Assembly: GCA_963693365.1 (NCBI GenBank)
Contig: CAVNZM010000016.1
Span: 6,121,029-6,185,028, forward strand
Direction of reading: 5' to 3'
Source: Amoebidium appalachense
Taxonomy: Eukaryota; Protista; Ichthyosporea
Length of the DNA stretch: 64,000 nucleotides
Position numbers and translations under genes: made by a program. Under the pieces are notes generated by a model that saw only the letters and a program-made list of their open reading frames with translations, had not been told where the DNA came from and did not search any database. How positions within the stretch are numbered: position 1 is the first letter of the stretch; each line of letters begins with the position of its first letter. Shown piece after piece: positions 10,474 through 28,143 of the stretch.

Positions 10474-12139
10474 TTAGACACTAGTTTGGCTACTCTGACT
10501 ACTCTGAGATCCTGATTGGCTGCCTGCAGACTTGCGGCCACGATTACTTTGCTTTCGATCGTGCCATTGCAGCTGCGTCTCTCCAGCAGGTGGCAACGCC
10601 AGGCCCAGCACAGCAGATGCACGAGAAGGGGGTGGGAACTGCCCACCAGCCGAGGGCTGGCCCACATGGCCCAAGTAAGGATGGGGACCGTGCTGCGGCA
10701 GTAGCCCAGGCATGGGGAAGGCAGGGCCGGGCTGAGGCGGCATGATGCCCCACGGTGGGGGCCAGCCATGTGGGTGGTGCGGGCCTGGATGGGGTGCAGG
10801 GGGCATGTGCGGCACATGGCCCTGCTGCATGTCAAGCGCGGGTGCTGGTGGCATGGCATCCTGATTGGCTGCAACCCAACGTGGGCAGCTCTTGGCCCGA
10901 TTGGAGCCGGGGCAGCCCTTGCCCTGGCGGCCACACGTCTTGCAGGTCTTGGGGGCTCTCTGGGGTGGCTGCATAGGAGGGGGCACCGGCAAATCCATCT
11001 GCAGGGGCCCCTCAGGGCCAATGTTGCGATGCTTTTTGCCCACTAGCATGGGCAAGGGCCGCTCACGCTGCGCCCCTGCATCGACACCGTCTGGAACAGG
11101 GAGGGGTGGCAAGGGGGCAGGCCGTATGGTTGCTGGCACAGCGTCTGCCCTCTCCTCGCGCATACGCTTGCGGTGATCTGCCAGGCCCTCGTGTGTGGAG
11201 CGCTGTGCATGTGCCGTCTGCCAGGTCTTCCACTTGTCGAAATGCTTCTTGATGTAGGCCGCATCCTTCATGTAGATTCCCCCAGCCACAGAGGCAGCCT
11301 TGTTGAAGTCTTGGGCCAAAGCCTCGAACAGCTGGCCGTTGGGCTTTGCATGTGCCTTGTAGGTGCCCAGGAGCAGCGTGCTGAATAGCTTGCGCTCCTG
11401 AGGGGTAAGCACCGGAAGGAAGGGGATGGCCACATGTTGCTTCTGCGCCAGGAACTTGTAGTCGCCCCTCAGTGCAGGGTCCGGCTGTGGTGCACCACGC
11501 GCCACCTGGTTGCCCCCCCCCCATGGCAGCACCGTCACCCTCCTCGACCTCACAGTCCTCTGGCCCGCCCATCACGCCATTGGCTGCAGGCTCGATGTTA
11601 TCAGACGGAGGTGGGGGTGCGGGCACCGCAACTGGCTCCTGCGCCGGGGCATTGGCCACACAGGAGAGCGGGGCAAAGTTGAAGTACTCCTCCGGTAGCT
11701 TGTAGCAGCCTACGGGTACCCACTGGGGGTCGAGGTGATGGCCGTACAGCATCAGCGCCAGTGCCTCCATGTCGTCAACAATCCAGGGGCTGTAGTGGGG
11801 GGGCCCCGATGCCTGGCCCAGGCGGTTGCGGTAGTGTGCACGCAGGTTGTGGCGGTGGCGCCTATTGGACATGGTGGCGTCCAGCAGGCGCAGCGACATG
11901 CGTGTGGCCCCAAAGTGGGTGGCCAGGGGGTTGTGCACTGCCCCCTCCACCTCGTTGGTGCCCCGGATGCAGCGGTAGCGCATGAGCCCATCTGCGTCGG
12001 CAGTGGTCTCGTAGTAGAGGGGCAGGCCGGGGGGGTCCGACAGACAGCCATTTTGGGCGTGTTCGAGCAGCGACTGTGGGGGCACAAGCAAACATCAGAG
12101 AGATGGGTGGGTGGTGGTGGTGGTAGTGTGTGTGTATGT

Positions 12140-12192
<53 letters not shown>

Positions 12193-12264
12193 TGGGGTTG
12201 CTAAGGAAAAAAACGAGCAGGGAAAGGCAAAAAACAACTGGCTAGGCAGCAAGGGCCGTGCGGG

Positions 12265-12342
<78 letters not shown>

Positions 12343-12930
12343 ATGTTTGGGGGGGGGGGGGAGGGGGGGGGGGGGGGGGGAGGCTAGGGTGTGCGTGTGT
12401 GTGCAGATGAACCAAGGATGACAAATAAGCGAAGAATCTTTTCTGTGGTGGTGGAGTTGTTGGGCGCCTGCAGGGGGAGGGGGGGGGGGGGGGGGGGGAT
12501 GTTGCCTCGAGTCTTTCAAAGCCATCCTTCTTGAACAGAGGCTTGCCATCCGGTCCGGGCGGCACATCCTTGTAGGTGTTTTTGAACTCCACCAGCCGCG
12601 AGACCAGCGTGTATGGGTCGGGAATAACCCGCCGGATGCGCTCCATGAAGTAGCTCAGGTCGCCGCCCTTGAGCTCGGTTTCAATGTCGATGCCCTTCTG
12701 CTCCAGCACCCCCTGTGAGGCAGGATGCCAATATTAATTTACTACGCACACTGCAATTTGGGTTTGGTAGACTTTGATACCTGCCGTTATTGTAGGACCC
12801 CTCCCCTCCACCCCCCCCATCTTCTCCCCCAACACAAGTAAAAAATGCATGTGGCTCTTTCCCCCCACAACCCTACATTATTTCTCTCTAGGCATATGAA
12901 TAACCCCCACTCTCCTCCCCCCCCCCCCCC

Positions 12931-12970
<40 letters not shown>

Positions 12971-14017
12971 TTGCCCCCCCCTCTCTCTGAGGCTCAGGCT
13001 CTCTCTCTTCCCTCAGAAGTTTTGTCGAAGGTGTGCATGGTTGTGGGTGGAATGGTGAGTGTGTGCTAACGAGTGTATGTGTGTGTGCGCGTCAGTCACG
13101 CATGTTGTTGTTGCCGTTTTTTTTATTTTTATTTTTTATTTTTTATTTTGGGGGGGGGGGGGAGGGGGGGGGCACCTTCACATGTCCGTAATCCTCTTCA
13201 TTCCACACAAATATTGCCTCGCTGAGTGCGCGTGCGTACTCAGCCCTGCGGGGGTGTGACTTGTACGTGCCGTCCGCCGTGTTTGCAATGGAGTGGAAGG
13301 CGTCATTCAGCACAGTCTGCCACACCACCTCCCCAGGCGGTGCCTGGCCCAACATGCCCTCTCTGGGAGCTGCCTCGGGTCCCCCTGGGGCTGCCTCAAG
13401 GCCCCCCGGGGCTGCCTGGGGGTCCTGGGGGGGTGCCTGTGGGCCGGCAAGGGGTTGCTGCTGCTCGGCAGGGGGAGGACTGGCAGGGGGAGGGGCTGGG
13501 TCAGGGACCACCGGCACCTCGGCACCTGGGTCCGGTGGGGGCTGAATGGGCCGTAGCCACTGCAGGTGCACCATCAGCTCAAAGGGCGGCGGGCCCAGCT
13601 CTCCCAGGGTCTTGCCCTTGTCGGGGCCAAAGGGCACCTGCATGGCCGGCGACAGCACCTGATCCACCCGCACCACTGCATGCTTCTTGCCCACCTTCAT
13701 GCCCCCCCAGCGCTCCGGCTGCACAGCCAGCACCACCCCGGTGGCTGCTGCAGCATGTGGGCCCCGCCGGGGCACAATCTCAACCCCTTCACCGAGTGCC
13801 TTTGCATGAAGCCGCGCTGCATGTCATAGAGGGAAGCAAAAAACTCAGCCAAAAAGCCACAGCACCAACGTTTTTCTCTTCGCTCCACAAAAATCAAATG
13901 CATATTCCTTAGCAACCCCCTCTCCCCCCCCCCCCCCCCCCCCCCCCCCTTCTCCCTCCCCCCCCCCTCTCCCAGTGCCCAGCTTGTGTGGCACTTGCAC
14001 GTGTTAACAGTGCTATA

Positions 14018-14048
<31 letters not shown>

Positions 14049-15517
14049 CCACCACCACCACCACCACCAATCACCCCCTCCTTTGATAGCCACCCGACAC
14101 CCAGCATAACACAACTGGAACACTGGCCCATGTGGTCAGCCACCCCCTCCCCCCCCCCCCCCCCCCCCCCCCCTCCTCCCCCTCCCCTCTCCTCTGGGGG
14201 GCCCACAATCTTTCTATATCTGGCATAAGCACATAAGCACTGGGGCAAAAAGCAGGTGGGATACACACCTGACAGGTTTGGCCTATCGACCACGGCCGAG
14301 TAGACCTGCAGGGACGCATATGCATCAAGGGCAGCGTAGGTGGCCTGCACCTCTGATAGCGGCTCGTGCCAGTTGGAGCATCGAACAAGTGCCGGCTTGG
14401 GCAGCTTCTTGCCTATGACCTGGGCAGTGATGTCGGCCAAGCCCCGGGCCGCAGAGGTGATAGCTGCACGGGCATAGCAGAACCGGCCCAGCTCCAGATA
14501 GCTGGCCACAGGGGTGCCGTAGTCCTTGTTGAGGTGGGCCGAGTCCGTGCCGATCTGCTTGCCCACCTTGATGATGCTGGGGTCCCTAAGCAGCGCAATC
14601 AGCTCGTCCACCAGCCGCGCGGGCGGGCTGTGGTTGGGGCCCATGCGTGCCAAGTGGAAGATGTACACGGCCCGTGCGGTGGCAATCTGCAGCGTGCAAA
14701 CCTTGGACCGCGCCTGGCCCACCCGATAGACCCACTCGCAGTCCAGCCCCACCACGCGGTGCTGCTGCCCCTCCAGGTCGGCACGAATGGCCGCTGTAGC
14801 CACCACCGCCCCCTGGCAGTCGGTGTACACCGGCTTAGGGTAGTTGGCCGGCAGCTCCAGCCCAGGCAGACCGTCCGTCACGCTTACCAGCGCAGCCTCG
14901 TTCAGACGGACGGGGCATTTTGGCCGGGCTAGGGTTGGAAACATGCGCTCAACAAACGCCCGGTCTTGGCAGCACCGATCTGTGTAGAAGAAGGCCGGGC
15001 CCTTGCTGTTGAGCGCCGCCGTGGTGGCAGAGATGCGCTGGATCACGGGCTCAATCTCCTGGTGGCTGCAGTCCCGTGTAAATACCTGCGCCCGGATCTC
15101 TGGGGTGCCGCACTGTGTGAGAGGGCATCTCCGAGCAGCCATGCATGTTCTAGCTTCCCTTACCACATGGCCCTTCACGAGACTTCAGTGCCCACACAAT
15201 CCTTTCCCCCTCCCTCCCCCCAAACCCATGTGCCCACATACTTTCCCCTCCCTCTCCCCCAAAACCCTTCCCCCTCCTTCCCCCCAAACCCATGTGCCCA
15301 CATACTTTCCCCAGGCCTCCCTTTCCCCCAAAATCTTCCCCCCCCCCCTCCCCCCTAAACCCATGTACCTACAATCCTTCCCCCTTCCTCCCCCTAAACC
15401 CTTGTGATCACAATCCTTTCCCCCTCTCTGCCTTCCCCCCAAACCCATGTGCCCACGATCCTTCCCCACTCCCCCCTCCCCCCAAACCATGGGACAGCCC
15501 TCCATATGGCACCTACT

Positions 15518-15550
<33 letters not shown>

Positions 15551-15679
15551 ACCCCGGGCCTCTTGCCCTCTCTACCTTCAACCCCGACGGTGGTGTCCCC
15601 CCCTCCCCCCCCCCCCCCCCCCCCCCCCTGCATCCCTTGCAATCACTGGCCCCTACTCCCATTCTGCTTGGCAGAAGCT

Positions 15680-15726
<47 letters not shown>

Positions 15727-15957
15727 ATTCCCCGCCAAAAGAAAGCTCCACCCCAGCCCACCCCAATCTCTACCCAGCAAAAACACATACACACATATCT
15801 GGAGCTTCCTAGTTTTTGCTCGACAGGGCAAGAATTGTCCCCAAAACCCACATACTACAAACCTCTACTCACAGTGTGCCACCTCATTAAATGTGGAGCC
15901 TAAGAGATTTAAAGGCCCTAGAGGGGGGAGGGGGGGAGGGGGGGAGGGGGGGCGTGT

Positions 15958-15988
<31 letters not shown>

Positions 15989-16416
15989 CGTGTGTGGGGG
16001 GGGGGGGGAGGGGGGGAAGGGGGCCTGGGGGAGAGTGGGGGGAGGGGGGAGAAGAGGAGGGACCACACACCGCCAAGCTCGTTTACACAAGTCCATAGGC
16101 CTCGGTACAGAGGCTCCCCATTGATGCCGGTGAGCTTCCCAATTTGGAAGGTGTGGTCGGCCTTGAGCACGTTGTTTACGGGCTTGAGCTGCGTGTCCAG
16201 GCTCTGGTACTTTGCCGTGCGGTCGCTGAACTCAGTATACACGGCACTCAGGTATTTGCCTGAACCCCAAGTACTGTTAGAACTCCACCACCCTCCCATC
16301 AGGACCATCCCCCCCATTCCCTCTAGTCCCTCGTGTTCATCTCACCTCTCTGTATTTTCGTAAGTCTGTATGGCTTTTCCCATCTCAAAAACGCTACACA
16401 CCCATCTCCGGCCGTT

Positions 16417-16464
<48 letters not shown>

Positions 16465-16643
16465 CCTCCCGGCGCGCGCAAACCCTCCAAGTCATTGCAC
16501 CAACTTTCACCTTCTTTCCCCTTTGTGCCCCATCTGCAGTTTGTCCCCTGCACGTCCGTTTGCCCTTCCCCCCACACCCTCCTGCCACTACTATAATAAC
16601 CATTAAGTACCGCCACCAAGATCCAGTCTACCACCATGTGCCC

Positions 16644-16686
<43 letters not shown>

Positions 16687-16835
16687 CTCTCCACCTCCTT
16701 TCCCCCAACACACACAGACACACATGCGCACACCCACCATCTAATTTCAGGCATAACAGTTCTCCACGATTTCCCAAGCACACTCACTGGTACATGGACC
16801 GTTATGCTTTCACCCCTCTGATGATCCCTCTGCCC

Positions 16836-16869
<34 letters not shown>

Positions 16870-16965
16870 ACCACCACCACCACCACCACCACCACCATGA
16901 CTGATTGCCACCACCACCACCTAATCCATCACCATGTCCCCCTCCCCCCCCCCCCCCCTCCCCCC

Positions 16966-16996
<31 letters not shown>

Positions 16997-18378
16997 GGAC
17001 CCACAAGTACACGCACACTCACAGGCGCACATCCACCACCACACATCCACCACCACCATAATAGAAACTTATTGACCACACTTCCAAAACCCATTTCCAA
17101 GTCCCCCCCCCCCCCCTAAAAAAAAAAATAAAAAATAATAAAACAAAACCCTACCAAGCCAACCCAAAAAATGCCCAAGCACGTGCATACAAAACAATGG
17201 GGACCATTTACACACCCAAAATGCAGTGCACACTTGCCTGAAGGCACATGTCCAGCGTAACCATTTTTGTCACCAAACGCCGAGAACTTAGCCGCCTGCT
17301 CCTCTGGGGGAAGTTCTGTCAGGCGCTGGTCGTGGGGGCGGAAATCGTTACGCTTTTTGAGTTCATACTTGGTCCAATGCAGCGCCCTCGAGTAATACAG
17401 GAGCCGCTGCTCGTCGTATCGCTGCTTGTGGAGCTCCGAGAGGAGGGTGGCAAAGGCGTTTGGGCCCACACCTTTGTCTGCCAGTGCACGCAACAATGTT
17501 ACCACCTTTAGGTCGAGCCCACTGCGGTGGCTAAGGTAGGCCGGAAACTGATCACGCATGAAGAGTGGAAGGCGTTTAATTGTCTGGGGGTTTGTGCCGG
17601 CAAAGTTTTTTTTGCATGTGTCACAAAAGTACCGGGCCGTGATAATGTAGTAGCAGCTGTCAAAGTCGATAACACGCCGTCCTACGGGGTTGCTCATGAA
17701 CCCATTGCGAGAAGTACGGTGTGGGTTGGGGTGGTTGTGGGGGTCCACGTAGTGATCATCGAAGGGGCACGGCACCATGAAACCGGGAGACAACCTTTCC
17801 GGAAGCCAGGCAAAACATCTGGGTTTGTAGAAAGGCGCTGGATCGCCCCCAAATTTAAAGCCTATAATGGGAGGTGGAAGATGCCACCCCACAGGCGTCT
17901 TCTCATCTTTGAGACTCTCTTTCACTGTGTGCAGGTGCGACTTGATTGTTTCGCCCGCCGCGTCAGAAAACTCCTCTCCACCGTCATCCCCGTCCGTATT
18001 ATCTTCTCCCTCTTCCTCCCCTTCATCCTCGTCTACCCGGTACGCATCTGCTGCTGCATTTAGCAAAGGTTCCTCGTCGGGTTGCACCTGTATGTCTGGT
18101 GGGTGTGGAGCAGGGGCCCGATCCATTTCTCTTGGTAACGAATGGACGCTACCTGCCTCAACTACACGGGCCCTTATGTCGGCGGCCTTAGATAGAGGGG
18201 GCTGTTCGGGTTGTACGTTTACGTTTAGTTCCTGCAAAACAGCTTTGTTTGCCGTCCCAAAACCTGCAAAGTTCTGAACAAATGCAGCATCTTTTTTTTT
18301 GCGCCCAGCTCCCTCCCTAGCTCCGCCTGTTTTATGCCCAGGGCGCTGTGTTGTGCCCTTAGGGCAGCCTGGCTTCAT
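10474..18378 (-). CDS. Putative DDE transposase (Mutator/IS256/ISL3-like layout, DUF6729-like N-terminal region) with embedded WRN-like DEDDy 3'-5' exonuclease and C-terminal Cys cluster, ~1,535 aa
   Basis: Phase-consistent exons 18378-17238, 16259-16071, 15099-14269, 13816-13176, 12712-12506 and 12073-10474, with one extra C in the homopolymer at 11513-11522. Motifs in order: GGAREGAGRK; CPF..YFCDTC..FPAYLSHRSGLD; KADHTF; NELGEIR; YTDRCC; exonuclease GLDCEW / KVGKQIGTD / YAALDAY; NDAFH; SDPPG..YRCIRGTNEVEG; CKTC..CPG..C. Confidence 0.8.
15190..15490. repeat. Degenerate minisatellite (CCCCAAACCCATGTGCCCACA..) in intron 2 of the transposase gene
   Basis: About six recurrences of AAACCCATGTG/AAACCCTT separated by C-rich spacers. 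Confidence 0.7.
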
Positions 18379-18693
18379 TTTAAACACTTGGGGCCTGGCC
18401 CCCTGCCCCCCTAGTGCGACTACGTTACCGCAAACATTCCCGTATTCCAGTGTGCTCGGCAATGCTGCTCATGGCCTTCCCGGACTGGTTGTGACCAGTA
18501 AAGAGCGCGCCAATTCCTGACCGCCGCCTACAGCAGTGTATGATCTGTTATCCATATTCGGCAAAAGGGGTCTTGCCCAACCAATGGCTTGAATCCTTGT
18601 AACTTTGCTTTATCCATATAAGGTTAGCTGAACACCCCCCCTCCAATCATACCCCCCCCTTCTCTCTAGTAGTAGCTCCTGGCATGCCGCACC

Positions 18694-20932
18694 CCAGCAG
18701 ACGGTTAAGGGCGGCGGTTTTGCGGGGCATCATGTAAACCTTTTCGTAGGTGGTGGGGAGGGCTGTCATGGTGGCTACCCCCGGGGTGGCCAGGAAACCG
18801 GGGGCACCGTATTCGACGTAGTAGTGGCCACGCTCACCGAGGAAGCCGGGGAGGTCGCGAGCGCCCGTCAGGGGGTGTGCAGAATCGGATTCCTGAGGGT
18901 AAAAAGAGAGAGGGTTAGGTGTTTGTTTTTGATGTGTGTTAGGTGTGTGGCAGGGTGGAAGCTTATTGCGAGAGGGCACCCGTGTTACTAATAGAAGTTA
19001 AACTGTATGAGTGACCAGCATGCAAGTGCTTTGGGGGTCCGGCATAGGATGTGAGGGAAGTCATACTGTGAGGCAATATCTGCAATTTACGATTTGGGGG
19101 TGTGTGTGGGGCCAAATATTTGACGTGGGTGGTGTAGCGCCTGCATGGGGATGCATCGTTCAAACGGGGCACCCGGGTGGAGGGGGGGGGGGGGGGGGGA
19201 AGGGGGGGGGGGGGAATGGCAAAACGAGAGGGGGGAAGGGGGGGGGGGGGGGGGGGGGAAGCGGGAAAAGGGGGAAAAGGGGGGGAAGACTGGGTAGGGG
19301 GGGAGGGGGGAGGGGGGAAGCTCATTTATGAACACACACCTGCAGGCACACGACGTGGGGGTTGTAGCTGTTGATGATGGCCGACTGGCGCTCCAGATTG
19401 GACATGCCCACAGACGCCTGCCCGTCCACGGCCACATAGGCCTCGTAGCCCTCCTGGATGTTCCACGACATCACCGTGAACGTCGTCGGCGTGTCCAGCG
19501 ACCCCCGCGACGCCGCGTACCAACTGCGCATGCGCAAGCCCGGCAGGAACACGGCAAACAGAATCAGGCCCCACACAATGGCCATGGCCTTGGCATATTT
19601 GGTGACGGACACATCCACCTCACCAAGGCCCCCCTCGCTGCGGGTGCGCAGGATGAACCAATCGGAAAGCGGCACAAGGATGGCCATGGGAACAAAGACG
19701 ATCGGAAGAAGGAAGGTGACGTTTCCATGCAGCCAATCGAATATAGCCATGTTCATAGCCATCTTGCCAATGAGCCAGATAAACAGGAGAAAATAGATGA
19801 TGAACATGAAAAAGCCGGTCATGAGCACAAACAGGAAGCGCACACGTGCCCTCAGCGAGTGGAGACCCAGCTTGAGGGCCGTGAGGGCAACAGTCGCCAG
19901 GGTGGGCAGCGACAGAGCCATGAAGAAGCCACCGGCCATAAGCATACCGGCACTACCTGTGCTCACTTCCTGGAATTCCACCGATTTGCCGACGTTGAGG
20001 GAAGCGAGGATGCCGCCCAGCATGGCACAGGCCGAGGCACCAAAGGTGACGTAGTCGCGGCGCGGGGGCTCGAGCATATACCAGGCATACTGGGCCACAG
20101 CGCCAAAAAGGAGCGCAAACACAATCACAATGCCGGCCGGGTAGGAGTTGAGTTTAGCCCATCGAACGATGACGGCATCACTTGTAAACAGCCACGAGTG
20201 AAGGATGAGCACGTCGGCCACACCCCAGGCAGCCATCCACGTGAAGGCAGGTGAGACCTGGTGGTTCTGTTTCTCAATCTTGATGCCGCGAACATGAGAC
20301 GGTGCAGAGTACAACCACGCGACGGAAAGGAAGCCAAAGATGTAAAAACCCCATGCGGCCATCCAGCTCATTTCCAGGTCTACGGCGTTGAGCGAAGAAA
20401 GCGCCCAGCGGGAGGTGACCATGAGGAACATGCCGTTGCCCACACCGAGCATCTCAGTCATGGTGAGGGCACTAAGGAACTGTGCCAAGGCTAAGCCCGT
20501 TCCAAACATGATTGCGATGGTGCGCCAGGTGGGAGAGATTTGGGTCATGGTGGCGTAGAAAACAACGGTGGCAAGGCGGAACACGTTGCGCCATTTCTCG
20601 TCGCGGAGCAGACGCCAGAAGAAGGGAGTGCAGAAGATACACGGGAGGACAACATAGCCAAAGAAAGGGGGGACTACACCCCACAGGGAGAAGCCCAGAT
20701 TCCAGGGATCGAGCATGTGCCAGTAGCCGGTGAACATGTTAGAGCCAATCATGGTCAGGTTCATGAAACCAAGAATGGCAAAGGCAACAGTGTCAACGAC
20801 TACGGTGGCTATGCTTGGGCGGGGGTCAAACATCGCACGGTTTTCGCTTAATGTCTCATCTAAACAGGCCGCCGAAACGGCAATGTCTTGGTTGGTTTCT
20901 GTATCTTCGCGTTTTTTCATTTCTGTATCCAT
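18694..20932 (-). pseudogene. 5' part of the disrupted CWH43/PGAP2IP-like paralog
   Basis: ATG at 20932. Exon 1 (20932-19340) is open and encodes many TM helices, SWNIQEG and CLQ. Exon 2 starts at 18892 (ESDSAHP) and is cut at 18694 after LNRLL. Confidence 0.85.
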
Positions 20933-21808: not shown

Positions 21809-22181
21809 CAGGCCCGAAAATTCAGATCATTGTTCTCGGTATTTTTTCAAGCCCCGGTGTATTTTGGCCCGGGGGATATGGTATTTTTCATACCAAGTCA
21901 GAGAAGGATGAAGGGGGGGTCTGACGGTAACCTACCATGACCGTGCATACTTGCATATCTTTCCGTCGAATAAATCCAGTCAAAAGAAGAAAAAAAAACT
22001 TTTTTTCTTTTGACTGGATTTATTCGACGGAAAGATATGCAAAGTATGCACGGCATACTGAGAAGACAATAAAAAAACTTCACGAGACTTGCGGGGGCCT
22101 ACCATAAACTGAAAATATGATGGTATTTTTGAAAACTTTTGGGTATTTTTTACCGTAAAAACGGGGTTATGGTCGGGCCTG
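21809..22181. mobile_element. MITE-like element with CAGGCCCGA termini and an internal ~110-bp palindrome
   Basis: CAGGCCCGA...TCGGGCCTG ends and a near-perfect hairpin at 21941-22053. No TSD recognised. Confidence 0.6.
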
Positions 22182-22923: not shown

Positions 22924-25714
22924 ATGGATACAGAAATGCGAAAGCGCGTAGATGGAGAAATCAGCCAAGACATCGCCGTCTCGGCGACTTGTCTGAACGA
23001 TGCACAGAGCGAGGATCATGCCTTGTTTGACTGCCGGCCAAGTGTAGCCACCGTAGTAGTTGACACTGTTGCCTTTGCCATTCTTGGTTTCATGAACCTG
23101 ACCATGATTGGCTCTAACATGTTCACTGGCTACTGGCACATGCTTGATCCCTGGAATCTGGGCTTCTCCCTGTGGGGTGTAGTCCCCCCTTTCTTTGGCT
23201 ACGTTGTTCTCCCGTGTATCTTCTGCACTCCCTTCTTCTGGCGTCTGCTCCGCGACGAGAAGTGGCGCAACGTGTTCCGCCTTGCCACGGTTATTTTCTA
23301 CGCCACCATGACCCAGGTTTCTCCCAACTGGCGCACCATGGCAATCATGTTTGGAACGGGCCTGGCCATGGTCCAGTTCCTTAGTGCCCTTACCATGACA
23401 GAGATGCTCGGTGTAGGCAACGGCATGTTCCTCATGGTGACCTCCCGCTGGGCACTTTCTTCCCTAAACGCAGTAGACCTTCAAGTGAACTGGATGGCCG
23501 CGTGGGGTTTTTACATCTTCGGCTTCCTGTCGGTTGCGTGGTTGTACTCGGCCCCGTCGCATGTTCGCGGGATCAAGATTGAGAAGCAGAACCACCAGGT
23601 CGCGCCTGCCTTCACGTGGATGGCTGCCTGGGCTGTGGCCGACGTTCTCATCCTCCACTCGTGGCTGTTTACAAGTGATGCCGTTATCGTTCGGTGGGCC
23701 AAACTCGACTCCTACCCGGCCGGCATTGTAATTGTCTTCGCTCTCCTTTTGGGCGCTGTGGCCCAGTATGCCTGGTATATGCTCGAGCCCCCCGCCGCCA
23801 CTACGTCACCTTCGGTGCCTCGGCCTGCGCCCTGCTGGGTGGCATCCTCGTGTCCTTTAACGTCGGCAAGTCGGTTGAGTTCCAGGAAGTGAGCACGGGT
23901 AGTGCCGGTATGCTTATGGCCGGTGGCTTCTTCATGGCTCTGTCACTGCCCACCCTGGCCACGGTTGCCCTGACGGCCCTCAAGCTGGGTCTCCACTCAC
24001 TGCGGGCACGTGTGCGCTTCCTGTTTGTGCTCATGACCGGCTTCTTCATGTTTATTATCTACGCCTTCCTCTTTATCTGGCTCATTGGCAAGATGGCTAT
24101 GGATATGGCTCTGTTCGACTGGCTGCACGGAAACGTCACCTTCCTTCTTCCGTGCATCTTCGTGCCCATGGTCATCCTCGTGCCGCTTTCCGATTGGTTC
24201 ATCCTGCGCACCCGCAGCGAGGGGGGTCTTGCCGAGGTGGACGTTTCGGTGACGAAATATGCCAAGGCCATGGCCATCGTGTGGGGGCTGATTCTGTTTG
24301 CTGTGTTCCTGCCAGGCCTGCGCATGCGCAGTTGGTATGCGGCCTCGCGGGGGTCGCTAGACACGCCGACGACATTCACGGTGATGTCATGGAACATCCA
24401 GGAGGGCTACGAGGCCTATGTGGCCGTGGACGGGCAGGCGTCTGTGGGCATGTCCAATCTGGAGCGCCAGTCGGCCATCATCAACAGCTACAACCCCCAC
24501 GTTGTGTGCCTGCAGGTGTGTGTTCATAAGTCCCCCCCCCCGTCCCCTCCGCCCCCCTCCCTCCCCCCCCCCCCCGGCCCAATCCCTCCCCTCCCCCCCC
24601 CCCCCCCCCCCCCCCCGCCAACCCCCTCCCCTCCCCCCTTCCCCCGCCACAGCTCCTCCTCCCCGCTTCCCCCCCCCCCCCTTTTTTCAAAATCTTTCTT
24701 GCCAAACCCCCCCCCCCTCCCGTTTCATCCCCATTGGCAGGCTCTGCGCCACCCAACTGATGATGCTCAGATTTGACCCCACACACCCACCCAAATCGTA
24801 GTACGCAGATATTGCCTAATAGTATGACTTTCTCATCCCAGGTTAAGCCCCCTAAGCACATTCATGCAGGTGATTCATACGGTTTAAATACTGTCAGTAA
24901 TAAAGGTGCCCTCTCGCAATAAGCTTCCACCCTGCCACACACCTAACACACATCAAAAACAAACACCCTAACCCTCTCTCTTTTTACCCTCAGGAATCCG
25001 ATTCTGCACACCCCCTGACGGGCGCTCGCGACCTCCCCGGCTTCCTCGGTGAGCGTGGCCACTACTACGTCGAATACGGTGCCCCCCGGTTTCCTGGCCA
25101 CCCCGGGGGTAGCCACCATGACAGCCCTCCCCACCACCTACGAAAAGGTTTACATGATGCCCCGCAAAACCGCCGCCCTTAACCGTCTGCTGGTGCAGGT
25201 TGGGTTCCCGTACTATGACCCCATCGCCTTAAAGACACAGGAGGTGCACGTCTTTAACACCCACACCGAGTGGTTTGACGAGGAAGCACGTGTTGCTCAG
25301 GTCGAATTTATTAAAGAAAAGATTGCAGCCACGAATGGACCCGCCGTGTTCATGGGCGACTTTAACATGAACATGTCCATGCTGGCACCAATTTGGAACC
25401 CCGACCAGAAGGCCGTAATGCTGCCCGTCAACATGACCAACCACCCGGCCGACGAGCAGGGTTTGGACTTTTTCACGGAGATTGTCGGGGACCCCCCAGG
25501 CACCGGCCCCAAGCTTACCCTGGACCACATTTTCTACCGGGATCTCTGTGTGGTGGGCTTCAAGGTGGTGCAGACCTACGGGGCAAGTGACCACCTGCCC
25601 GTCGTTGCCACTTTCTCCACCCACAACCTCACCACTGGAGCACCGTGTACCACTGGGCCGATTACGTGGGACAAGATTAACAACCCACCCAAGGTGGACC
25701 GCACACTTCTTTAA
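22924..25714 (+). CDS. CWH43: CWH43/PGAP2-interacting-protein-like multi-pass membrane protein with C-terminal EEP (DNase I-like) domain
   Basis: Exons 22924-24515 and 24994-25714. Many TM segments are followed by SWNIQEG, CLQ|ESD..GARDL, GDFN, LDHIF and SDHLPV. Two 1-bp frameshifts relative to the paralog both lie in C-runs (~23790, ~25085) and are probably sequencing errors. The family call comes from recalled motif similarity. Confidence 0.7.
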
Positions 25715-26168
25715 ACTCTTTATGTAGTCAATCAATAGCTTCTTTTAAATCTTAATTTTTAATGCGAGAATAGTATTTGTAGTCTAGTGTAGATTAGTCA
25801 AAGCAACTATGCACATGAGCAAGAAAGCTTAGTATATGACACCTTTTTTTAATGATTTTTACGTGTATGTGTATAATTGATGGAAAGGTTATCCACAACA
25901 AAATCTCACTGGCGATTTTAAGAAACCTGCGCTGGACGCGGGTTGATATCCAAATATATCCAATATAAATTTAGCGAATACTGATGCCCAAGCAGGTAGC
26001 TGTACACACGGACCACCCTATCAAATCAATCACACCCGTAGAACACCGAACCACGCACGAACACACACAGACACACATGTACGCATGCGTTCACGCTCAC
26101 ACATTTACTTTTCGTGCGCACACATACACAGACACAACCTAACCCCTTTCTGACACACACACACGCAC

Positions 26169-26199
<31 letters not shown>

Positions 26200-26384
26200 T
26201 GTACATACCACACAAATGCACATATGCACATACACACATACGCCCGCGCACACGCGCGCATAGTCACACAGGCACTGTTTATTACTGCTCAAGCATGCAC
26301 ACACACACAAACACACAGAAACTCGATGCACACGGTTACAGATCTATGTATCTTTATAGTGGAAAACGCAAATGCACTGCATAT

Positions 26385-26661
26385 TTAAACCAACCACCGC
26401 ATCTCCCAAGTTTAAACAAAATCGAGGTTGATCCGATCGAGGATTCCAAATTGTCCTGGCGCCGCCTAAGAAATTATCGAACTTATCAAGCGATCGAGGG
26501 AGTGACGTCATTCTGGGCACACTTTTCCCAGAATAACGTCACTCCCTCGATCGCTTGATAAGTTCGATAATTTCTTAACCCACGCCAGGGCCATTTGGAA
26601 TCCTCGATCGGATCAACCTCGATTTTGTCTGAAATGGGAGATGCGGTGGTTGTTGGTTTAA
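26385..26661. mobile_element. Palindromic (foldback) MITE flanked by TTAA, copy 1
   Basis: TTAA-ACCAAC...GTTGGT-TTAA, with ~130-bp arms pairing around a short loop near 26520. Confidence 0.75.
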
Positions 26662-26804
26662 ATCCTCATGTGCTGATATGAAAACGCACCCACGGCCACG
26701 CACTTCCTGCTGAGGCACATTCAGCCGCACACAACTTAACCTTCAGTTGCACAACTGGATAGCGAGGAATATTCCAATTTTTTTATTGTTTTTTAAATAC
26801 CTTT

Positions 26805-26900: not shown

Positions 26901-27759
26901 TTGCGATATTCCTACTTTTTATTACTTTATCTACTTGGTACTAAGAATCAGCTTACAGCCCTTTCGTCTCCCTAGTTTCATCCCGTCCTCCCCGGCCCCT
27001 TTCCTCCTTCGAGCCCCCGCCCCCTCCCCCCCCCCCCCCCCCCTCCCCCCCTTCCTCCCCACCTCCCTTCCCACTCCCCAAAGAAACAAGAGTTTGAAAC
27101 AACTACGATAATCATAGTCAAGGCTCACTATTACTCCCCATAAAAAAGCCTCTATGAATTTTATGAATTACTTCGATAAAAACCAGTGCGCGCACACGTA
27201 CACACACGTACAAGGACTGCATGCATGGGCACAAGCTTACCTCCTGCGTGCACGCGCAGAAGACACACAATTACAGGGGTTTCTTCTAGGCCGATTTATT
27301 GTAATGACTTTTTGGTCCTCGGGTCGGGCCAAATGCTGTTTGATGCGCACCAGGCCAATCACATTGCATTTTTTTTACCTGGCATTCGACCCGCGCGTCT
27401 CACCCGACCTGAATGCCTTAAATAGAAAACACCTTTAATTGCCCCCGAACCCAGCTCTTAAACTTCCTCCCGCTCCCTTCCGCTCCCCCCCACCCCACCC
27501 CCCATCCCCCACACCCCCCACCACCACCAAAACTCCCCCCTCAAATCCCCCCTTGCGTAACACGCTTTATCCCAACTCCCCCCCTCAATCTGCCTCCCCC
27601 CCCCCCCCCCTCTCTCTCTCCTCCCCCTCCCCCCACCACCCACCCCACCCCCCACCCCTCCTCCCACCCTCCTAGCTTCTCTCCACACCCATCCACCCAA
27701 CCAACCGACACCAACACCTGCCTTACATGCACGAATGTTCAACTTACATCTCTGCTAAC

Positions 27760-28032
27760 TTAAACCAACCTCCGTATCTACCATTTTAGACAAAATCGAG
27801 GATGATCCGATCGAGGATTTCGGATGGCCCTGTTGCGGCTCTTGAAATTCTCGAATCAATCAAGCGATAAAGGGCATGACGTCATTCTGACGTTTTGTAA
27901 ACAAATGACGTCACATCCTTGATCACTTGATATGTCCGAGAATTTTAAGTAGCCGCGTCAGGGCCATCCGAAATCCTCGATCGGATCATCCTCGAACGGG
28001 GCTTAAAATGGTAATTACGGACCTTGCTTCAA
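27760..28032. mobile_element. Palindromic MITE, copy 2 (same family as 26385-26661)
   Basis: Starts TTAAACCAACC and shares AAAATCGAGGnTGATCCGATCG and TGACGTCATTCTG with copy 1. Its arms are self-complementary. Confidence 0.75.
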
Positions 28033-28143
28033 GACGAGTAATTTGGAGCTCTTTCTTATGTTGAGCCGCAACAGCGTTTTCTGGATCTGGAGATGAGCTG
28101 GTATACACTCAAAAAGCTCCGTTTTCTTCCTTTTCTCGCAGCG

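Follow-up and report, generated by a model that had tools for sequence, protein, structure and literature searches.

An exonuclease-bearing Dada transposon interrupts a protein-coding exon in Amoebidium appalachense

In the 64,000-nt stretch of Amoebidium appalachense DNA analysed here (hereafter the window), we detected a minus-strand gene of six transcript-confirmed exons inside an inserted element. Exon 1 (17238-18378) encodes a basic AT-hook-like motif followed by an acidic linker and a DUF6729 domain, exon 2 (16071-16259) the catalytic aspartate D1 (codon 16158-16156, D418), and exon 3 (14269-15099) the second aspartate D2 (14980-14978, D487) together with a DEDDy exonuclease (14743-14324). 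Exon 4 (13176-13816) holds a beta-rich module, a low-complexity linker and the DxxH motif (13304-13293; D895 and H898), exon 5 (12506-12712) a helical insertion domain, and exon 6 (10474-12073) the catalytic glutamate (11947-11945, E1049), a helical domain, a Cys4 finger (10944-10885) and the stop. The introns measure 978, 971, 452, 463 and 432 bp in gene order; all five acceptors are AG and the donors are GC, GT, GT, GT and GC, the two GC donors being those of exons 1 and 5.

The RNA evidence consists of spliced contigs from sequencing runs and of named transcript proteins of Amoebidium parasiticum, which bear out the expression and splicing of the gene. Residues 1-1187 of the window model are those of the 1538-residue transcript-derived protein P0012, except for a 3-residue insertion near the start of P0012, and the end of P0012 is the last reading frame of the window; this match confirms all five splice junctions, including the GC donor of exon 1. 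The exon 5 junction is also present in contigs of runs X5, X9 and X1. The first-pass annotation had proposed six exons and about 1535 residues. The exons and junctions held, but as written in the window the exons sum to 4609 nt and the frame ends at 1339 residues, and the 1535-residue product requires nine G in the minus-strand run of ten at 11513-11522, as found in transcripts. Contigs of all four runs (X5, X9, X1 and X11) have one base fewer at this position, and the 9-G version accounts for full depth in X5, X9 and X1 and for about one-third of the summed depth in X11. The extra G most likely reflects an assembly error within the homopolymer, and otherwise a defect in the window copy. The shift lies 3' of the catalytic glutamate and touches only the C-terminal 348 residues, the Cys4 cluster included. 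We rejected the idea that the G run hides a small intron, since transcripts run straight across it with one G fewer.

An alternative GT donor (17215-17237, minus strand) lies 22 nt beyond the GC donor of exon 1. Splicing there gives a 396-residue product without any catalytic residue and with the same tail as transcript protein P0017; an alternative acceptor tried as the source of the P0014 tail gave no fit. The transcript proteins P0009 and P0012 differ by indels, and transcripts may derive from other copies, the 3-residue insertion being absent from the window. In run X11, 180 contigs fall on 1.7 kb, 44 of them at less than 99% identity, with three loose ends, a variety that suggests several copies or alleles. 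The window itself contains one copy of the element; the contig variants and the indels among transcripts hint that there are others.

The protein matches the PFAM domains DUF6729 (exon 1, E 1.7e-18) and DNA_pol_A_exo1 (exon 3, E 2.7e-15). The latter keeps the DEDDy residues D566, E568, D632, Y701 and D705, and resembles the mouse WRN exonuclease in sequence (E 5.2e-16) and in the fold model (Z 27.7), as expected from the earlier proposal of a complete exonuclease between D2 and DxxH. All motifs named in that annotation were found in the order given, and its call of a Mutator/IS256-kind DDE transposase agrees with the near-invariance of D418, D487, D895xxH898 and E1049 across 158 homologues. 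Counting homologues with a letter at the site, D1 is D in 106/106, DxxH has D in 150/153 and H in 151/152, and the catalytic position is E in 150/152. Of the 98 homologues that cover the stretch from D1 to E, 79 retain both the DDE and the exonuclease catalytic sets, 14 the DDE set only, 3 the exonuclease set only and 2 neither. The N-terminal zinc finger reads C207-x4-H212-x42-C255-x2-C258 (P0012 numbering), one His replacing a Cys of the CCCC finger of Dada elements (C-x4-C-x34-C-x2-C in Dada-U6_DR), and a similar pattern is present in 63 of the 79 homologues that cover the region. The C-terminal finger, C1383-x2-C1386-x6-C1393-x8-C1402, is CCCC, versus the CCHC published for Dada; 101 long-tailed homologues divide into 38 with the Cys form, 3 with the His form and 60 with none.

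The fold model places the WRN-type exonuclease within an IS256-like DDE core, with the strands of the beta-rich module at model residues 370-449. Among transposases, the model aligns best with that of ISCth4 (Z 13.9 and rmsd 4.2 over 250 residues in the model range 9-725; VIA-align), and it also aligns with foamy virus integrase (Z 9.6). It predicts an RNase H-like core that wraps around the exonuclease. Foldseek and PDB sequence searches gave exonucleases only among the matches listed, and transposases surfaced only in the wide VIA-align search. P0012 has no MULE PFAM match at E 0.1, and MULE-type matches, weak and sub-threshold, occur in 3 of 41 homologues. In the ESM Atlas, unnamed eukaryotic clusters (Basidiomycota, Mucoromycota, Chordata) were recovered at 0.95, and a Mutator lead at 0.83 is based on 14% of members and serves as a lead only.

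The element, best delimited at 7675-18693 (minus strand, 11,019 bp, GG...CC on the gene strand), is missing from an inverted paralogue of the host gene at 22924-25715, in line with the insertion seen at first pass. The host gene is split into a 3' part (7204-7674, minus strand; paralogue counterpart 25245-25715) with an endonuclease/exonuclease/phosphatase domain (PF03372 on the intact copy, E 2.4e-10) and a 5' part (18694-20932, minus strand; paralogue 22924-25193) comprising a hydrophobic N-terminal exon, an intron and the start of the last exon. The interrupted and intact copies share 265/295 residues in their N-terminal part, and the element flanks are 456/472 and 206/208 identical to the paralogue (97-99%). 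The empty site (25194-25244, plus strand) comprises 51 bp absent from the interrupted copy, with GG^TGCA at both bounds; of the three GGTGCA sites in the 2792-bp arm, two lie at the breakpoints. The insertion site is an exon that codes for protein rather than an RNA gene, and 51 bp of host DNA have been lost there.

The element ends rest on this one empty site and on two relatives, L021 and L004. The 3' terminal motif (7675-7689, minus strand) matches 9 of the 12 positions common to the 3' ends of the two relatives, a score equalled at 47 of 127,970 window positions. Both relatives show a head-to-tail junction of element ends with 6 bp between them: L021 is a self-overlapping contig whose ends meet over 6 bp, and L004 has a 6-bp junction. 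The absence of terminal inverted repeats, suspected earlier, agrees with both scans, since the end-to-end score was matched by 103/300 shuffles and the best internal pair (14/16) by 10/100, which is chance level. No target duplication was found at the element junctions in the window; the 51-bp host loss would erase one. With limits at 8191-18681 instead, the element would sit at the edge of an older insert of 0.5 kb, between the two copies of an 11-bp direct repeat (8180-8190 and 18682-18692) that occurs nowhere else in the window and arises by chance in 8-29 of 1000 Markov simulations and for 14 of 799 other window 30-mers. We consider these limits unlikely: the repeat was spotted after the fact, 11 bp exceeds the 6-7 bp of Dada, and it is the junction at 7675 that fits the 3' ends of the two relatives.

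ARAGORN detected no tRNA gene in the window or in any of 53 related loci, many of which stop short of the element ends. No Rfam match in the window reached gathering score. With the threshold relaxed to E 1, positions 5000-27000 gave 75 matches, all below gathering score and all to families other than tRNA, U1, U6 and 5S, and the 18 longer loci scanned, of the 53, gave no matches. As the element lies in a coding exon and the window gave no tRNA match and no Rfam match at gathering score, we do not place it with the target-specific Dada families.

We assign the Amoebidium element to the exonuclease-bearing Dada transposons, with a probability of roughly 0.93; the predicted role of its spliced 1535-residue protein is to cleave and join the element ends, and it likely trims exposed 3' ends. 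The architecture and the exonuclease position were published in 2013 for Dada-1_LB and Dada-2_LB of Laccaria bicolor and Dada-1_ES of Ectocarpus siliculosus (PMC3706591). The tie to these named proteins is a hand comparison of printed exonuclease segments. The exonuclease of relative L010, retrieved by its transposase-core pattern, is identical to printed Dada-2_LB (Fig. S1) at 143/159 positions (~90%, hand count), and L010 aligns with P0012 over residues 182-814 (27%, E 2e-50) and 892-1112 (33%, E 3e-27). P0091 likewise matches printed Dada-1_LB at 98/161 exonuclease positions (~61%, hand count) and aligns with P0012 over 183-1092 (26%, E 4e-81), and P0092 from Ectocarpus is similar to Dada-1_ES by eye. 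The fungal relatives mentioned in the first-pass annotation were confirmed. The D1-D2 spacing is 69 residues here, versus 68 in Dada-U6_DR and 66 in ISCth4. Dada elements range from 4666 to 10979 bp, and the Amoebidium element, with five introns, has 11,019 bp. A viral origin was also considered; viral contigs yielded 13 pattern matches, not one of which was confirmed.

The two best-known Dada traits were not found at this copy, whose ends show no snRNA, tRNA or 5S gene and no 6-7 bp duplication. Together with core identity of at most 38% to all relatives, the lack of tRNA genes and Rfam matches at related loci, and the absence of the term DUF6729 from the literature searched, this could point to a separate, undescribed superfamily that has an exonuclease in common with the Dada-LB elements only through capture of a similar domain. 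That reading is very improbable, given colinear homology to Dada-LB-type loci over DUF6729, D1, D2, exonuclease, DxxH and E, the same motif series in the fish element Dada-5S-A_CaAu (printed DNA translated by eye), and the classification of such elements as Dada in the 2013 paper (PMC3706591). A domesticated, immobile host gene derived from Dada has a precedent in dDada of carps, and the Amoebidium gene is transcribed and spliced. Its catalytic residues, however, are all intact, whereas those of dDada are lost; the element breaks one of two paralogues with 97-99% identical flanks, and the indels between P0009 and P0012 and the X11 variants suggest several copies or alleles, so that we regard domestication as slightly more remote still.

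In the mechanism that we propose for this exonuclease-bearing Dada, the N-terminal basic motif and the DUF6729 zinc finger would bind the element ends, the IS256/Mutator-like DDE core is predicted to cut and join them with D418, D487 and E1049 carrying out strand transfer, and the nested WRN-type exonuclease likely trims exposed 3' ends. The exonuclease would be an accessory end-processing part, because one clade retains the DDE residues and has lost those of the nuclease. The alternative splice product, which comprises the DNA-binding part only, may damp transposition. The most likely origin of the locus is an ordinary Dada insertion, after which about 50 bp of host DNA would have been lost beside one end, either by transfer of a single end to a similar site or through microhomology repair. 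It is also conceivable, though doubtful, that exonuclease-bearing Dada elements form a large lineage without RNA-gene targeting that moves by IS256-like copy-out/paste-in, the exonuclease trimming spacer or target. Attack by one end at a point 6 bp beyond the other would then yield a circle in which a 6-bp spacer lies between the joined ends. This fits the ISCth4-like fold and the 6-bp spacer optimum of ISCth4 (PMC7780238) as well as the L021 and L004 junctions and the deletion beside the Amoebidium copy. These junctions are explained equally well by tandem insertion accompanied by a 6-bp duplication, which has been reported for Dada-U1. If true, copy-out/paste-in would put a eukaryotic DDE transposon on a circle pathway known from bacteria.

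The first-pass annotation had proposed a poorly described transposon class; its novelty does not stand, as the architecture is already known from Dada (PMC3706591) and no new class is opened. Its wording "poorly described" applies to the ends, targets and biochemistry of the exonuclease-bearing subgroup, but not to its architecture or to the end-processing idea, as Kojima and Jurka (2013) had guessed at a role of the exonuclease in processing 3' ends after cleavage (PMC3706591). The Amoebidium element adds a transcript-confirmed member, catalytically complete by sequence, in a unicellular relative of animals, and makes that guess directly testable. It also identifies DUF6729 as the N-terminal domain of exonuclease-bearing Dada transposases.

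Dada-1_LB, Dada-2_LB and Dada-1_ES have in common with the Amoebidium element the DDE triad with DxxH, introns, a size near 11 kb and, placed between D2 and DxxH, a DEDDy exonuclease with its full set of catalytic residues. Zinc fingers stand near both termini in each, but with different ligands (CHCC for CCCC and CCCC for CCHC). The ichthyosporean host is absent from the 2013 Dada table, and the main text of that paper gives neither target nor termini for these three elements, whereas the Amoebidium ends are readable against the empty paralogue and supply candidate ends for the subgroup (PMC3706591). The motif order, the near-equal D1-D2 spacing and the lack of terminal inverted repeats are shared with Dada-U6, -U1, -tA, -tL and -5S, for which no exonuclease has been reported and which duplicate 6-7 bp on insertion into multicopy RNA genes, unlike the Amoebidium copy with its protein-coding exon and 51-bp loss; one-ended events and insertions without clean duplication have been reported for these target-specific families (PMC3706591, PMC8869645). 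The predicted RNase H-like core, C/DxxH and helical insertion are shared with IS256 ISCth4 (PDB 6xg8) and MuDR/Mutator, but ISCth4 lacks an exonuclease and has inverted repeats of 31 bp and duplications of 8 bp (PMC7780238). Only 21 residues separate D2 from CxxH in ISCth4, versus 408 from D2 to DxxH in the Amoebidium protein. MuDR/Mutator elements have 9-10 bp target duplications, long terminal inverted repeats and a MULE domain, none of which was found here. KolobokD is likewise a C/DxxH-type DNA transposon, encoding a DnaQ-like 3'-5' exonuclease, but its nuclease is DEDDh, versus DEDDy here (PMC9587614). The TTAA duplications and RR...YY termini of Kolobok do not fit the Amoebidium element, which has no TTAA at its junctions.

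In the minus-strand gene of the element, an exon boundary search located six exons at 18378-17238 (GC donor), 16259-16071 (AG acceptor, GT donor), 15099-14269 (AG acceptor, GT donor), 13816-13176 (AG acceptor, GT donor), 12712-12506 (AG acceptor, GC donor) and 12073-10474 (AG acceptor), with GC donors in two of the five introns. When the beginning of exon 6 served as a protein query, a 100% identical EukProt protein was detected, and its cluster comprises 18 transcript-derived Amoebidium parasiticum proteins. One of these, P0012 (1538 aa), is identical to the window model across residues 1-1187, except for three additional residues near the N-terminus, and its C-terminus is in the same frame as the window's last frame. 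Contigs from three sequencing runs (X5, X9 and X1) depart exon 6 at 12075 and resume in exon 5. Because P0012 and these spliced contigs agree, the six-exon gene claimed in the first-pass annotation, which had named RNA-seq among its checks, is correct, real and well-formed, and the Dada gene is transcribed at the level of the family. The length of ~1,535 aa given there stands after correction of a run of ten G at 11513-11522, while the window frame as written ends at 1339 aa. Contigs from all four runs have one base fewer in this run (at full depth in three, and at about one third of the summed depth in X11), which is most likely an assembly slip. An alternative GT donor (17215-17237) lies 22 nt beyond the GC donor that intron 1 uses productively. 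It gives a 396-aa product lacking catalytic residues; this truncated form is present among the transcripts (P0017) and is possibly a repressor.

Pfam domains found in the protein are DUF6729 and DNA_pol_A_exo1. P0001, a form of 1169 aa without exon 1, was searched against 1.84 billion representatives and gave 3819 matches at E <= 0.001 and 220 at E <= 1e-30. We aligned 158 homologues, consisting of the best 150 and earlier matches and excluding proteins of its own cluster. The intact D..D..DxxH..E layout previously read from the sequence proved nearly invariant among rows with a letter at the position: D418 (D1) is conserved in 106/106, D487 (D2) in 129/130, D895 and H898 of DxxH in 150/153 and 151/152, and E1049 in 150/152. 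The exonuclease residues are retained in 119/132 (D566), 119/134 (E568), 135/150 (D632), 145/155 (Y701) and 142/156 (D705). Of the 98 rows covering D1 to E, 79 have both catalytic sets, 14 the DDE set only, three the exonuclease set only and two neither. Eleven of the 16 rows without the exonuclease set (P0002, P0003, P0004, P0006, P0055, P0090, P0108, P0135, P0138, P0141 and P0167) group in a single 12-member clade (support 0.995 in a midpoint-rooted FastTree tree), in which the named members are proteins of the agaric fungi Lentinula and Rhodocollybia; this clade keeps D, D, DxxH, E and the exonuclease domain, with its catalytic residues lost. Some of the remaining five look like alignment slips. 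Further named relatives are found in chytrids, Mucoromycota, aphelids and Ectocarpus, and the aphelid homologue P0032 has a Ulp1-type peptidase domain at its C-terminus (Pfam E 3.6e-5).

In the AlphaFold2 model of P0001, built on 50 sequences (mean pLDDT 74.2, pTM 0.66), D1 and D2 lie in a region of three strands, one helix and one further strand; the exonuclease comes next, after which a strand precedes DxxH and E sits on a helix. Comparison with 48,161 chains using VIA-align matched model residues 159-356 to mouse WRN exonuclease (Z 27.7, rmsd 1.7, 184 residues) and residues 9-725, spanning the exonuclease, to the bacterial IS256-family transposase ISCth4 (Z 13.9, rmsd 4.2, 250 residues); foamy virus integrase scored Z 9.6. 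The predicted fold, with the WRN match inside the ISCth4 match, thus agrees with the earlier placement of a WRN-type exonuclease within the DDE core.

The novel transposon class proposed earlier was not borne out: the protein aligns along relatives of the Dada-LB type, and the Amoebidium element is an additional member of this already known kind. We compared exonuclease segments by hand with those printed for named Dada families. By hand count, the related locus L010 is identical to Dada-2_LB at 143/159 residues and the homologue P0091 to Dada-1_LB at 98/161; by eye, locus L026 resembles Dada-1_LB and the Ectocarpus homologue P0092 resembles Dada-1_ES. L010 and L026, retrieved by a transposase-core pattern independent of the exonuclease, align to P0012 starting near residue 182 and reaching past 1100, and P0091 aligns over 183-1092 (E 4e-81). 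One locus, L046 (8098-16541), carries a Dada-1_LB-like gene between perfect 28-bp inverted repeats that are absent from the other 52 of 53 related loci; these read like Tc1/mariner ends with a TA duplication. In the described Dada elements, terminal inverted repeats were not found, lengths range over 4666-10979 bp, and introns and two zinc fingers are present (PMC3706591). The first fish element in the supplement of PMC8869645, translated by eye, shows the same motif series. According to excerpts of two studies, four fungal phyla together contain 1023 Dada copies that have a transposase domain (Muszewska 2017, PMC5751038), and Ectocarpus has one Dada family (PMC12477816). The word Dada was not found in the main text of an Amoebidium genome paper (PMC11244446), and our search of the literature found no published report of an Amoebidium Dada element.

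The element lies in a region where a host gene encoding an endonuclease/exonuclease/phosphatase domain is duplicated in inverted orientation. The insertion already claimed is evident in the left copy, where 7675-18693 replaces 51 bp retained in the right copy (25194-25244), with flanks identical at 456/472 and 206/208 positions. The duplication spans 7204-20932 and 22924-25715 around a 113-bp near-perfect palindrome (hairpin, 21941-22053), with ~90% identity between the copies upstream and 97-99% in the sequence around the insertion. The host gene includes a hydrophobic N-terminal part, and the long exon of the right copy is apparently split over two frames near 23700-23890. Inverted repeats of the element do not exceed chance, in line with the suspected lack of terminal inverted repeats; we found no target duplication at the insertion and no tRNA, snRNA or 5S genes near it. 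In the empty copy, GG^TGCA occurs three times within 2792 bp, and two of these occurrences coincide with the junctions.

Elsewhere in the window, palindromic elements at 26383-26663, 27759-28033 (these two related, ~76%) and 38719-39269 resemble miniature inverted-repeat transposons and have no ends in common with the Dada element. A tandem array of ~2.5 kb with a period of 24 nt occupies 57777-60270, and a minus-strand gene at 3-1922 encodes an LPMO_10 domain with a glycoside hydrolase 18 domain after it and is probably chitin-active.

Among the contigs of the 53 related loci, only in L021 do the termini overlap in direct orientation, by 123 bp. This exonuclease-type relative is a circle or tandem unit, its element ends (5942-6085 and 1-123) joined head to tail over 6 bp; locus L004 (6030-6100), also of the exonuclease type, has a similar head-to-tail junction across 6 bp. 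A 14-bp palindrome is repeated immediately inside the 5' end in L021, L004 and L010 (L010: 4482-4640). The junction at 7675 matches 9 of 12 positions common to the L021 and L004 3' ends, a score reached at 47 of 127,970 window positions and compared after the resemblance was noticed; GG is the only sequence shared by the 5' ends. An 11-bp direct repeat (8180-8190 and 18682-18692), lying beside the right junction with a chance of about 1-3%, could instead set the limit of the element, and the 9/12 match favours 7675 as the probable 3' end over it. The six bases preceding the element 7675-18693 and the six following it both start TGC, which would fit an ordinary 6-bp duplication and then the loss of sequence next to the 3' end by deletion.

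The element ends would most likely be bound by the N-terminal basic motif (a similar one occurs in 11/158 homologues, many of which lack the N-terminus) and the DUF6729 finger and be transferred by the DDE core, and the exonuclease would most likely trim exposed 3' ends. Since one clade lost the nuclease residues and retains DDE, this activity may be accessory, provided that elements of that clade still move. We consider an IS256-like copy-out/paste-in pathway unlikely, because tandem insertion, already published for Dada-U1 (PMC3706591), accounts for the L021 and L004 junctions equally well. In ISCth4, according to excerpts of PMC7780238, joined-end integration works best with a 6-bp spacer, and the joined ends of L021 and L004 are likewise separated by 6 bp.
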